Positions 23,231 to 29,439 of a DNA stretch of 64,000 nt are shown here, piece by piece. Position numbers and translations under genes: made by a program. Origin of the DNA: a bacterium (GTDB taxonomy: Bacteria; Electryoneota; Electryoneia; Electryoneales; Electryoneaceae); NCBI GenBank assembly GCA_963669175.1, contig OY769902.1:1632001-1696000 (forward strand). Direction: 5' to 3'. The notes below the pieces were generated by a model. That model ran no database searches. It saw only the letters and a program-made list of their open reading frames with translations, and was not told where the DNA came from. Position 1 is the first letter of the stretch. Every line of letters begins with the position of its first letter.

Positions 23231-23575
23231 AACAACAAGGTTATGCAACAAAAGGGATTGTTTCTTGTCGCCGTTGTGTGCTGATCAGTCCCGATGCGCT
23301 CAGAGCATAGCGGTGTAAACTGCCTGTTCAAGAATATTCCTGCTGCACAATATGTTTAAAATCAGATACTTGCGGATCGGCCACCCCAGGTTCCCCTAAT
23401 CCCGACTTGCTCATCATCCGCATCACAAGACGACGCCCCACAAATGTTGTCAACATTTCGAGAGTATCATGCTACACTTCCGGCAAATCGGGCCATGCAT
23501 TCCTGTGCAGAACTGCTGGAAACGTACAGAGTCACCCAATCTTTCGTGTAAAACCCCGAGATCCCCGTTCGAGCC

Positions 23576-23971
23576 CTGTCTCTTACCCACATCTTCTGAA
23601 AGCTGTATCAGTAAAAGAGTTGTGGACATAGCATTTTTAGAATCCCGGCGGGATTCCCTATTTTAGCATAGTGTACAGGCCGTCTGTTTGGCCTGTACAC
23701 TATGTCAGGTATTCTAACGAATAATCAACCCTGGAAGGGTTGCATAATACGCGATTCATATTAGTACGTTCAATAAATACAGGGAATAACGCATTTTATA
23801 TTCTATACAAACCAATTGGGTGTAAGTTATACGTTATGCAACCCTTCCAGGGTTGAGATAAGGTTTGATCTTTTTCGTAGGGTAGACGCTAAACAGACAG
23901 CGTCAACCCTACGCTAAAATATACCACCCCCTCTGGGGTGGCAGAAACACGAAGATGTGAGCAAGAGACAG
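23576..23971. mobile_element. MITE family A, copy 2, inserted in a family C hairpin
   Basis: Near-identical to copy 1; flanking 9-bp repeats GTTCGAGCC and GTTCAAGCC (one mismatch). Confidence 0.9.
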
Positions 23972-24032
23972 GTTCAAGCCGGGGATGACACAAGGTCAAG
24001 CCGGGGATGACATAAAGTCGAGCCGGGGATGA
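23972..24032. repeat. Tandem ~22-bp family C units (GTCAAGCCGGGGATGACA)
   Basis: Three units; two more at 24181-24222. Confidence 0.75.
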
Positions 24033-24205
24033 TCTTGACCGCATGGCCCGACTTGCAGGTTTCAAGGATGCCGTTCGAATCATACTGACAACAAATATAA
24101 ATCGTAGTCCTGGGATAATGATAATGAGCAAGTCGGGAATTGCGAAAAGTTGCAATATTATACCAGCATTTGCCTGTCAACTCAGGTCTCGGGGATGACA
24201 TAAGG

Positions 24206-25507
24206 TCAAGCCGGGGATGACATGGAGGCCTCAATCTGATCAATTCTGTCCTGGTAGCTTTTCGCGGCTGCCGGGTTCAGTTCCAGCGCACGTTTTTCCG
24301 ACATGATCGCTTCCTCATGCATGCCCTTTTTCCAGTAGACCATGGACAACGTATCCCAGATGTTGTCATCCTCCGGGGCAAACTCAACCGCTTTACGTGC
24401 CGCGTTGAGTGCGTTGTCCAGGTTCGCGCCCTGCAACGCCCAGAACCAGGAATAGGCATTCAGACCATTCGCGTCTTTCGCATTGATCAGTCCCTGGGCA
24501 TACTCGGGCCCATACGCCTGCATTGCCTTTTCTTCGTCACCGGAGGCGGTGAAAATGGCGGCCAATGCTTCCAGGTCATCCGGTGCGAGCTGATCCTTGA
24601 ACCGTTCAAACAGGATGGTAGCCTGTTTTATCCCGGCAGCCTGGCCCTTCTCTTTGTCCTCGGGATTCAGACTGGCGTAAAATCGGACAACCCACGCGAA
24701 AACGGAATAATTGTCCGGATGTGACTTTTGCAGGTCAGAGAAAATGTCCAGGATGTGCGGACGTTTTTCTTCGTTACGAAGCTGACGGGCCAACAGACTT
24801 CCCACCTCATTAAACATCACACTCTGCGGGAAATCATCAAGGAAAGCGGTCGTCTTGTCCGGCGCATTGTATACTTGGAGCGCACGTGCATATTCATACA
24901 CCGAGACATCTTCACCATTAGGACCAAAGGCTCCTTTTACGGCGCTGGCAGCGTCTTCATCTGCTACGATAGCGTCAACATATACCACCATGCTGTCAAA
25001 CATATACTTGTCCTGAAACCATCCGGCGAGTTGGGCTGCGATTTCAGGATTGGAAGGATCGGCGCTATACGCGCTTTTCATGCTCAGCAGGGTATTTTCA
25101 CCACGGAGCATGCGTTCGAGCTTCGCCTGCACCTTTTCAGGATGGGCGCCGTAACCGACGAAACGATCTACCTCTGCGCCATCAGACTGAACGACGATGA
25201 CCTGGGGAGTGCCACGTACGGCGAATCGCTCGAAAACAGCTTTGCCAGCGTCTGACGTCCTGTCAGTATGAAAGGCGACGAAATTGGACGAAATGAAATC
25301 TTCGAATTCAGGGTTGTTGAAGAACTGCTGATCCAGCAGTTTGCAGGGGGTTCACGTAGGCGAGTAGAAATCGATTACAATATGCTTGCCCTGCGCTTTC
25401 GCCTGTGCCAGGGCCGCTTCAAAATCACCCTGGAACCAGATCGACTGCTGCCTTGAGCAACCGGTCAGGAAAACCAGCAAGGCCATCATGGCCAATGTTC
25501 TCTTCAT
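24206..25507 (-). CDS. Probable selenoprotein: thioredoxin-fold (UxxC) lipoprotein with C-terminal TPR repeats, 433 aa
   Basis: GGAG RBS, ATG 25507, lipobox FLTGC, VIDFYSPT-UGA-TPC (UGA at 25354-25352), RGTP cis-Pro motif; in frame with the track ORF starting 25132; hairpin follows the UGA. Confidence 0.85.
25323..25341 (-). promoter_or_regulatory. Candidate bacterial SECIS element
   Basis: AACUGCUG-GAU-CAGCAGUU stem starts 10 nt after the UGA; G-initiated loop 18 nt from the UGA. Confidence 0.7.
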
Positions 25508-25605
25508 GCACTACTCCAAATGGTTCTATGTTCTCGTAAAGACTTACTCTTGTCGCAGCAACCTTCCCGTGAAGGGAACAAGATAAGGTTTCAGTCCGTA
25601 GAGTG

Positions 25606-26012
25606 CTAACCCGGATATTGCACGACTGGCACTTGCACATATGATCCTTGATGGAAATGCCAGGGCAAGAATCCTCGATGGAAAGGGCAGGAGGAGAACC
25701 ACGGCAGTGGTTCTCGGTATTAGCCCACCGTCCAGCGCCGTCTGTTTGGCGCTCACGGTGGGAAATGAATGCTCTCCTCATGAACAACCCCGGTAGCGGG
25801 TTGCCTAACCATTCATGTTGTATATCTTTATTAATCTTTAGGTTACTCCTACCGGAGTAAATATATGGTGGGAATCATCTCCCCGGGTAGCCGCCAAACA
25901 AACGGCGGCTACCCGGGGCTAATACAGGTTGCCCCTGCCGGGGCGGTTTCCGAAACCCAGCCTCATTTTGCCAGCGAAACGGGAATAGCCACGCAATGGG
26001 ATACCGTAGCAA
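25606..26012. repeat. Repeat family D, copy 2 (inverted relative to copy 1)
   Basis: Reverse-complement homology to 9497-9863. Confidence 0.85.
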
Positions 26013-27222: not shown

Positions 27223-29439
27223 CTATTTCCCATCCTGTTTTTCCTGCTGTGTTTCAGGTGCAGGGGCGGCGTCTGCCGGGGGCGCCGGTTTTTCCATTTC
27301 GACAGCGCCGTGTGCGACCAGGTAATCACGCATTTCCGCGGTCTGGGCGCGTGGGATCGGGGATTGCAGGCTGACCATCAGCGGGGTGTTGCCGAGTTGG
27401 TCAACACGGTTGACATCGGCGCCATGTTCCACCAGCAGTTGCACCACATTAAACGAATTCCGCCATGCCGCAAGGTGTAATGCGGTTGCTTTGTAGCTGT
27501 CTTCTACCTCGATATTCAGGCCGCCATCGAGCAGGGCTTCCGCGGCTGGACGGGCGTCGGTCCAGGCGGCGTAATGCAGCGGGCTGGCATGGTTCGAGTT
27601 GAAGACCTCCAGCTTTGCGCCATGTTGGGTCAGCCAGCGAATTGCGCCCGGTTTATTCTCCCAGGCGGCGTAGTGAATGGGACGTTCCATCCGACGGTCC
27701 GCGGCATTCACATTCGCGCCTTTATCTACCAACTGTTCCAGGATTCCCATATCGCCGATCTTGGCGGCAAGGTGGATGGGCGTATCGCCTTCCTTGTCAG
27801 GAACATTGGGATCTGCGCCATGCTCGAGCAGATAGGTTACCTGTTCACGTTTGACCTCGGTGATCGCATGATGCAGCGCGGTCATGCCATCCTTGTCGGC
27901 AGCATTGATATCCGCGCCATGTTCCAGGAAGAAGTTTGTCATCTCAAAGCCCTCGTTCTGCAGGGAGAGGGAGATGACGTTGCGACCGTATTTGTCCTTG
28001 GCTTTGATATCCGCCCCACGTTCCAGCAGCAGCGTCGCGACATCCATCGACTTGTCGCTGGTGGCATAGAGCAGGGGAGTGGCTTCAAACTTGTTCCGCG
28101 CTTCAATCTCCGCGCCCTTGTCCAGCAGGAAAGTGGTCATTTCCAGGTCGTTTTCCATGACCGTCTGATGCAACGGAGTAAACTGGTTCCGGTCCGGGAT
28201 ATTGATGTTTGCGCCCTTCTTGATAAGCAGCTCCGCCATGTCGGTATGCTTGTCCTTGATGGCGATCATCAACGGGGTTTCAGCGGCGTTGTTGTGAGCG
28301 TTCACATTGGCGCCCTTTTTCAACAACAACTTGGCAATATCAATACTGTTGTGGTAGGCGGCAGCATGAAGCGGCGTTTCATCTTTTTCGCTGGTAGAAT
28401 CAATCTTCGCGCCACGCTTAATGAGCAGCTTTGCTACATCCATCGATCCGGTACGAGCGGCGTCGTGCAGCGGAGTCTCACCCTGGTAACCGCTGACGAT
28501 ATTGACATCCACTCCGGCATCGAGCAGCAGTTTGGCGACTTTCTTCGAGTTGGTGCGTGCGGCAAGATGCAGCGGGGTAAAGCCCTGAAAATTCATCTCG
28601 GTCAGGTCCGCGCCGTGCTCGATGAATTCTTTTGCCAGGGAAGCGTCATCCGTTTCACATGCATCGAAGAAAGTCTTGATATTCAGATCAGCGCCTGCTT
28701 CCATCAGCAGTTCACGCATTTCTGTCAGGTCACGATTTTCATCGCTCCGTGCCTTTCGCAAGGGAGTTTCGCCTTCGTTGTCCTGGGCATTGACATTTGC
28801 GCCGTGCGCCAGGAGCAGTTTGGCGGAGTCTATAGCGCCATACCCGGCAGCCAGGTGCAGGGCTGTAGCGCCGTAGTTGGTCACAGCGTTCACATCCGCA
28901 CCGTTGTCCAGCAGAACAGCTACGACATCGGCTTTATCATCTGCGGCGAAATAATGCAGGGGCGTATACCCCAGTTCATCAACTGCATTGATATCCGCGC
29001 CCAGCTTGATCAGGTGTTCGCAGGTGGCCGGGTTTGTGGCCATGTGAATGGGACGTGAGCCGACGCTGTTGATCGCAGTAATATCGGCGCCATATTCAAT
29101 CAGCAGGTCGATAAACTCAGGTGATCCGCCCCAGGCGGCAATGTGGATCGGTTGATTGCCGACAATGCCCTCTTCGGCGTCTACTTTTGCGCCGTTCTCC
29201 AGCAGCAGACGAGCGACTTCCACGGCATTGTGGCGCGCCGCAGTGTGCAATGGCGTATCGTTGATGCCATCCTGTTTTTTCTTAACACTGGCGCCTTCAT
29301 CGATCAGTTTCTGCACAGCTTCGACATCATTGTCTTCAACTGCCTTGAACAGGTCCGGTGTCTCCCCGGCAACCACGCCCCCGGCGAGTACCGCGACAAG
29401 CAGTATCAACAGGCTGTAATGGAATACAGAACGCTGCAC
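27223..29439 (-). CDS. Secreted ankyrin repeat protein (about 20 repeats)
   Basis: Signal peptide; many TPLH.AA...LL..GADVN repeats. Confidence 0.93.
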   Translation of the reverse strand: MQRSVFHYSLLILLVAVLAGGVVAGETPDLFKAVEDNDVEAVQKLIDEGASVKKKQDGINDTPLHTAARHNAVEVARLLLENGAKVDAEEGIVGNQPIHIAAWGGSPEFIDLLIEYGADITAINSVGSRPIHMATNPATCEHLIKLGADINAVDELGYTPLHYFAADDKADVVAVLLDNGADVNAVTNYGATALHLAAGYGAIDSAKLLLAHGANVNAQDNEGETPLRKARSDENRDLTEMRELLMEAGADLNIKTFFDACETDDASLAKEFIEHGADLTEMNFQGFTPLHLAARTNSKKVAKLLLDAGVDVNIVSGYQGETPLHDAARTGSMDVAKLLIKRGAKIDSTSEKDETPLHAAAYHNSIDIAKLLLKKGANVNAHNNAAETPLMIAIKDKHTDMAELLIKKGANINIPDRNQFTPLHQTVMENDLEMTTFLLDKGAEIEARNKFEATPLLYATSDKSMDVATLLLERGADIKAKDKYGRNVISLSLQNEGFEMTNFFLEHGADINAADKDGMTALHHAITEVKREQVTYLLEHGADPNVPDKEGDTPIHLAAKIGDMGILEQLVDKGANVNAADRRMERPIHYAAWENKPGAIRWLTQHGAKLEVFNSNHASPLHYAAWTDARPAAEALLDGGLNIEVEDSYKATALHLAAWRNSFNVVQLLVEHGADVNRVDQLGNTPLMVSLQSPIPRAQTAEMRDYLVAHGAVEMEKPAPPADAAPAPETQQEKQDGK

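Follow-up and report, generated by a model that had tools for sequence, protein, structure and literature searches.

Based on the comparison of distantly related genomes, we propose that a gene in the window analysed here (a 64,000-nucleotide stretch of contig OY769902.1, positions 1,632,001 to 1,696,000, from the assembly GCA_963669175.1 of a bacterium of the Electryoneaceae) in all likelihood truly encodes an exported selenoprotein with a thioredoxin fold and is cut short by standard gene callers. The gene occupies window positions 24206-25507 on the minus strand as a frame of 433 codons, and its single internal TGA, codon 52, is almost certainly read as selenocysteine (Sec), to judge from sequence comparison. 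With TGA translated as U, its context is VIDFYSPT-TGA-TPC, where the TGA takes the place of the first Cys in the thioredoxin CxxC motif. The gene and its product are composed of the following elements, which include a hairpin resembling a bacterial selenocysteine insertion sequence (bSECIS) and an arm of tetratricopeptide repeats (TPR):

24206..25507, minus strand: entire selenoprotein gene of 433 codons, followed by its TGA stop at 24206-24208
25514..25517, minus strand: ribosome-binding site GGAG, 6 nucleotides (nt) 5' of the ATG 25507-25505, read from the sequence
25457..25507, minus strand: signal peptide MKRTLAMMALLVFLTGC, ending in a lipobox-like L-T-G-C, read by eye
25094..25444, minus strand: thioredoxin-fold domain, DsbH/DsbD-gamma-like, residues ~22-138, from Pfam, structure and PDB profile matches
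25352..25354, minus strand: in-frame TGA, codon 52, first position of U-T-P-C, read as selenocysteine
25343..25345, minus strand: resolving Cys55 of the UxxC motif, invariant in the 30-row family alignment
25323..25341, minus strand: bSECIS-like hairpin with an 8-bp stem and a GAU loop
24209..25093, minus strand: all-helical TPR-like superhelix, residues ~139-433, from the AlphaFold2 model, Foldseek and Pfam

Under translation table 11 the longest open reading frame (ORF) comprises 308 codons from a GTG at 25132, and the public gene call (P0002, 301 amino acids) starts still later, at about 25111. The true frame reaches 125 codons farther upstream than the GTG. The original prediction, made from the letters of the window, had claimed this extension to an ATG led by a ribosome-binding site, the single TGA at the first redox position of VIDFYSPT-U-TPC, and a downstream 8-bp stem whose loop starts with G and lies 18 nt from the UGA. 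All three are confirmed here, and its expectation that gene callers would truncate the gene is borne out by the public call.

The TGA is conserved wherever it can be compared. A six-frame search of 41 related genomes yielded full-length orthologues in five, and a profile search of 79 genomes of the phylum found the family in six, each orthologue having one TGA; two further matches of the latter search are DsbD-like proteins. When one genome per prokaryotic species was scanned, 21 loci were obtained; the N-terminus is covered in 19 of them, each with TGA at the identical column. The orthologues from the 41 and 79 genomes recur among these 19, so that the distinct genes number 20 including the window gene, and the codon-52 column is TGA in every one of them. 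A sequencing error, which had been named with the original prediction as an outcome that would undo it, is excluded by this recurrence. Record titles of the orthologues name Zixibacteria, Calditrichaeota, Acidobacteriota, Aminicenantes or 'Eubacteriales', or give no phylum. The proteins align end to end at 26-53% identity to the window protein, and the alignment is continuous across the TGA in 20 out of 20. The motif is U-x-x-C in 18 orthologues and U-x-x-x-x-C in two (L063 6157 and L067 6157), which carry a two-residue insertion inside the motif (U-G-S-S/Q-A-C) and in which the hairpin has moved 6 nt farther away from the UGA, to a distance of 24 nt. DsbD-like matches with one TGA in three related genomes were rejected as selenoproteins, since their TGA is the terminal stop only.

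The hairpin lies inside the coding sequence. Its stem arms are AACUGCUG (25341-25334) and CAGCAGUU (25330-25323), closed by the loop GAU (25333-25331); the stem starts 10 nt and the loop 18 nt past the UGA, and folded alone the hairpin reaches -9.7 kcal/mol. The accessible text of a 2026 catalogue of prokaryotic selenoproteins gives as bSECIS limits a loop of 3-9 nt, a stem of 4-16 bp, a spacing of 16-37 nt and a minimum free energy of -7.5 or lower, together with a G within the first two loop positions (PMC13188914). The hairpin lies within every published limit, with its 3-nt loop, 8-bp stem, spacing of 18 nt and -9.7 kcal/mol. Across the window, on both strands and in any frame, a perfect stem of at least 8 bp in bSECIS geometry follows 11 of 2460 TGA trinucleotides. 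When compared with shuffled sequences, the 71-nt region has a z-score of -1.41 and is matched in folding by 21 of 200 shuffles, which is not significant alone. An Rfam scan gave no match at the hairpin, where a match is not necessarily expected. The terminal TGA (codon 434) has no such hairpin. By itself, the hairpin is uncommon yet not decisive; the decisive evidence is comparative.

Indeed, the hairpin is found at the same place in 20 of the 20 genes, and therefore goes beyond chance. The first loop base is G in all 20. The loop measures 3 nt in 18 genes (GAU in 9, GGU in 4, GUC in 4 and GUU in 1) and 5 nt in the other two, while the distance from UGA to loop is 18 nt in 16 genes, 17 nt in two and 24 nt in two. 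Within the stem, 90.6% of the alignment cells are paired. One stem pair is C-G in 13 genes, U-A in six and unpaired in one; this switch runs via synonymous Leu (CUG/UUG) and Gln (CAG/CAA) codons and occurs on separate tree branches. The closing pair is G-C in 16, C-G in two and unpaired in two. Codon entropy amounts to 0.85 bits at L57, 0.49 bits at L58 and 0 bits at Q60, compared to 1.26-1.87 bits in nine other conserved Leu columns and 0.34-1.0 bits at other two-codon residues, which served as controls. Synonymous sites within the hairpin are constrained.

The genome, available as one contig of 5.45 Mb, encodes the machinery to decode such a codon. The check for Sec genes proposed along with the original prediction gave selA (452.6 bits, cut-off 22.8), selB (347.8 bits, cut-off 242.25), selD (355.6 bits, cut-off 125) and the tRNA-Sec selC (64.7 bits, gathering score 47), all above their curated cut-offs. 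The selD gene is interrupted by its own single in-frame TGA (CVG-TGA-ASK, i.e., U-x-x-K; L009 ~1531), followed by an 8-bp stem with a GGU loop 20 nt past the UGA, which is the same design as in the hairpin at 25323..25341.

Homologues with Cys at the Sec position exist as well. Among 1.84 billion representative proteins, a profile search detected 327 matches at E <= 1e-30, and homologue classes were counted among the best 150 of these, taken as 50%-identity clusters. The column is covered and reads C..C in 34 of the 150, in keeping with the proposal that Cys should align to the UGA; it reads W..C in three (P0112, P0130, P0134), S..C in one and W..S in one. In 47 clusters the protein starts at profile position 57-58, directly past the motif, and in 42 it starts inside the thioredoxin domain. 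Those 89 are the calls expected if the start is placed past an in-frame stop, which suggests Sec in their genes as well. The other 22 clusters match further downstream only. A word-indexed search returned truncated forms only, of 301, 335 and 354 amino acids. A maximum-likelihood tree of 30 rows, built with a quick method, places 19 Sec forms and the Cys form P0027 in one clade (SH-aLRT 100) and eight other Cys forms with two Trp forms in a second one; given the quick method and the midpoint root, the direction of the Sec/Cys change is not established by this tree. P0100 carries Ser at the Sec/Cys column. The Trp and Ser residues seen there (P0112, P0130, P0134, P0100; e.g., SDG-W-GGC) may be true substitutions or may go back to a TGA that a gene caller with a different genetic code translated as Trp.

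The product is predicted to be exported, and in this respect the original prediction of an exported, lipid-anchored protein stands for its first part. A signal peptide is recognized by eye in all orthologues, whereas a Cys directly after G/A/S at its end, also read by eye, is present in about 6 of 20. Judged from these sequences, export appears to be a family trait and lipid anchoring does not. The window protein itself has L-T-G-C at 25468-25457 (residues 14-17) and is probably lipid-anchored at Cys17 (25459-25457).

The predicted combination of a thioredoxin fold with a TPR arm is borne out by Pfam and by a high-confidence structural model. Pfam assigns residues 25-128 to Thioredoxin_2 (PF13098; 52.3 bits, cut-off 27) and Thioredoxin_7 (51.6 bits), and residues 383-413 to TPR_8. 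The AlphaFold2 model, built on the 30-row alignment, has a pLDDT of 94.3 and a pTM of 0.86; it places U52 between a strand (42-47) and a helix (53-63) and shows helices from residue 140 to 430. Residues 22-138 superpose on DsbH (2ju5) with Z 15.7 and a root-mean-square deviation (rmsd) of 2.3 Å over 115 residues (VIA-align), on the putative disulfide isomerase 2kuc of Bacteroides with Z 14.7 and on DsbD-gamma (1vrs_D) with Z 13.1, and this domain also has PDB profile matches to 2kuc and DsbD. The cis-Pro of thioredoxin folds lies in a loop facing the active site; the corresponding Pro101 (25205-25207), in the T-P loop, is the same in all 30 alignment rows. For residues 139-433 the top Foldseek matches are OGT and consensus-TPR superhelices, with LbcA also matching and the SPY TPRs reaching Z 14.1. 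The superhelix thus agrees with the claimed arm, and the binding of clients by it is a prediction by analogy.

Several known systems resemble parts of this protein. DsbH (2ju5) and DsbD gamma (1vrs, 2fwe) are periplasmic reductase-type proteins and share its fold and its extracytoplasmic location, but they have Cys rather than Sec and no TPR arm, and the window protein scores 22.8 bits with the NCBIfam model for DsbH (cut-off 190) and 40.9 bits with that for DsbD (cut-off 330). CnoX is a cytoplasmic protein with Cys or SxxC in a classical thioredoxin domain, whereas the signal peptide of the window protein implies another compartment. As described in the accessible text of PMC10998233, CnoX/YbbN (3qou, 3qdn) likewise has a TPR domain after a thioredoxin domain. 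3qou takes rank 16 in Foldseek with a TM-score of 0.19, 3qdn has Z 12.4, and superposition leaves an rmsd of 21-22 Å; no YbbN/CnoX-type model is among the Pfam or NCBIfam matches of the window protein. The likeness to CnoX/YbbN is an analogy of design, not membership. The Trx7/PDZ (seleno)protein NF041199 also joins a Thioredoxin_7-type domain to a protein-binding module and has known Sec forms, but its motif in the accessible part of the catalogue is CxxU instead of UxxC, and the partner module is PDZ instead of TPR. Uncharacterised exported Cys thioredoxin-TPR proteins (e.g., P0027, P0127, P0142) have the same end-to-end architecture and share the signal peptide, the Pro that does not vary and, at the C-terminus, the TPR signature 'LN.YAW...DTL', yet carry CxxC in place of UxxC.

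From these elements a mechanism can be proposed. The hairpin inside the coding sequence would recruit SelB with Sec-tRNA, so that codon 52, a UGA, is translated into selenocysteine, and the TGA at codon 434, which lacks a hairpin, would end translation. The signal peptide would export the product, with Cys17 as a probable lipid anchor in this organism. Its active site U52-T-P-C55 would then act as an envelope thiol-disulfide (selenosulfide) oxidoreductase; a reductase or isomerase is the most likely type, because the nearest structural relatives act so. Recharging may be performed by a membrane electron carrier of the DsbD/CcdA type, and a DsbD-like gene is present elsewhere in the genome. The TPR arm may hold a client protein or partner, by analogy with CnoX/YbbN. 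We give this predicted role of a reductase with a client arm about an even chance. Only tentatively can it be extended to the broader proposal that the window protein is the founding member of an uncatalogued, widespread family in anaerobic, largely uncultivated phyla, i.e., an extracytoplasmic Sec-dependent 'chaperedoxin-like' enzyme that would combine a DsbH-type selenol with a TPR client arm to repair or reduce oxidised envelope proteins.

The reading of codon 52 as Sec has to be weighed against simpler explanations of the TGA. If it were a true stop, the locus would consist of a 51-codon ORF for a signal peptide and a separate gene from GTG 25132 or ATG 25111. Table-11 ORF calling yields exactly this split, and the public calls for the window gene and for dozens of its relatives are the truncated forms. 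Such a stop, however, would split one thioredoxin fold at its active site and leave a truncated product that has neither signal peptide nor redox motif, while one gene is indicated by protein-level conservation that crosses the TGA in all 20 orthologues (26-53% identity) and by Cys homologues that run continuously through this point; a true stop is thus very improbable. A pseudogene or an assembly error would require a nonsense change of a Cys codon (TGC or TGT) to TGA. This change is a single base, and the reads come from one sample only, but the same TGA recurs in 20 genomes that were assembled independently and that belong, by their record titles, to several phyla, the remaining frames are intact under evident protein-level constraint, and the conserved hairpin follows the TGA in all 20, which reduces the probability of this explanation to a negligible level. 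Highly improbable as well is the insertion of another residue, whether by a recoded genetic code (Trp or Gly) or by hairpin-stimulated near-cognate read-through (Trp or Cys). It could draw on the three of 150 homologues with W-x-x-C at the column (P0112, P0130, P0134), which are known from protein only; these W-bearing proteins fall in the Cys clade and not in the Sec clade of the quick tree. TGA is an ordinary stop here because 19 of the 41 ORFs of at least 250 codons in the window terminate with it, as does the selenoprotein gene itself, and an alternative genetic code was rejected on account of those 19. Moreover, the genome holds a complete Sec system with a TGA-containing selD, and the column is that of the catalytic Cys of CxxC, where Trp or Gly would abolish the redox chemistry.

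A different type of alternative accepts the selenoprotein but assigns it another function: its UxxC would bind or transform a metal or metalloid or scavenge peroxide, and the TPR would be a scaffold or an envelope-docking module. This is in line with the metal-handling selenoproteins with UxxC and CxxC sites in the accessible part of the 2026 catalogue, with the lack of a conserved redox partner gene nearby and with TPR lipoproteins such as LbcA, which are adaptors and not holders of redox clients. We consider it unlikely, given that the closest structural relatives (DsbH, DsbD-gamma and the Bacteroides disulfide isomerase) are thiol-disulfide oxidoreductases and that the protein retains the invariant T-P loop commonly found in catalytic thioredoxin folds.

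Some observations weigh against the Sec reading and the function proposed for the protein. No RNA run is listed as containing the stretch. Both read runs that contain its DNA come from one sample, have identical letters and may be the source of the assembly itself, and are therefore not independent support. In the shuffle control, the covariation score of the hairpin is matched by 9 of 500 shuffles and the number of double-changed cells by 3 of 500, which makes the covariation moderately strong only, and neither the number of pairs nor that of pair types showing double changes is higher than in the shuffles. As the stem encodes a conserved peptide (L-L-D/V/G-Q/E-Q), conservation of the hairpin is partly a matter of the protein level. 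The loop sequence, which is G-A-U in the window gene, is listed here as well. Finally, clustering of the ORFs from the window and 16 of the 21 loci revealed no neighbour conserved past close relatives or across phyla, so that the gene context names no redox partner or client. A response-regulator/kinase family occurs in four loci of this neighbourhood set, and this family is a common one.

The surroundings of the selenoprotein gene have features of their own. At its 3' end it adjoins a gene-free stretch of about 1 kb (23231-24205), which is rich in inverted repeats, among them two perfectly matching 23-nt arms at 23725-23747 and 23834-23856. Direct repeats of 34 nt, which contain GCCGGGGATGACA and have a period of 22 nt, occur in four copies at 23958-24035 and 24190-24223; one of these extends over the final codons of the gene and its stop, and the C-terminal ...MSSPA may be derived from the repeat. 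On the other side, within the 600-nt spacer between a transglutaminase-like gene and the selenoprotein gene, a weak palindromic match to the Rfam F6 small RNA is found on both strands (25875-25925; 30.2 and 26.1 bits, gathering score 46), which is probably just a hairpin. Two genes upstream, a protein of 738 residues made almost entirely of ankyrin repeats and preceded by a hydrophobic N-terminal leader is encoded at 27223-29439 on the minus strand, with a hairpin of 12-bp stem about 20 nt past the end of its gene.

With regard to novelty, the accessible text of the 2026 catalogue describes 119 prokaryotic selenoprotein families and separates (sub)families when the architecture differs, and its Table 1 has no TPR-bearing row (PMC13188914). 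By this architecture rule, as far as that text goes, a thioredoxin-TPR selenoprotein would be a new family. Its nearest counterpart there, 'Thiol:disulfide interchange protein (PF13098)', has the PF13098 domain, the UxxC motif and the coding-region bSECIS hairpin in common with the window protein, which adds the TPR superhelix of ~295 residues and the signal peptide, the two being compared by description only. Searches for TPR and tetratricopeptide terms gave nothing in PMC13188914, PMC13326102 and PMC12013277. A thioredoxin-TPR selenoprotein was not found in the literature searched, and its presence in BSepDB cannot be excluded. No NCBIfam model reaches its cut-off with the window protein (TsoB 51.6 bits, cut-off 805; Trx7/PDZ 22.9, cut-off 300; VPGUxxT 16, cut-off 275).

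In summary, the gene appears to represent a new family within a well-known kind. Its identification is solid and its mechanism ordinary, and it is of moderate value for annotation and for the redox biology of the envelope. In public protein sets the gene is represented only by an N-terminal truncation, as are at least 89 related clusters (50% identity), and both signal peptide and active site are missing from these entries. The truncated calls would be repaired by a family model in which the TGA is translated as Sec, and such a model would add a family missing from the NCBIfam selenoprotein models and, as far as Table 1 shows, from the list of 119 families. The natural Sec/Cys pair of exported thioredoxin-TPR proteins offers material for study. 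Sec is present in 19 of the 20 sampled members of the deep clade, the remaining one having apparently reverted to Cys. If the tentative proposal of an envelope repair enzyme is true, the retention of Sec throughout this clade would imply that its members need the selenol for their function and that a thiol cannot replace it. The family suggests that redox chemistry in the cell envelope depends on selenium in poorly known phyla.

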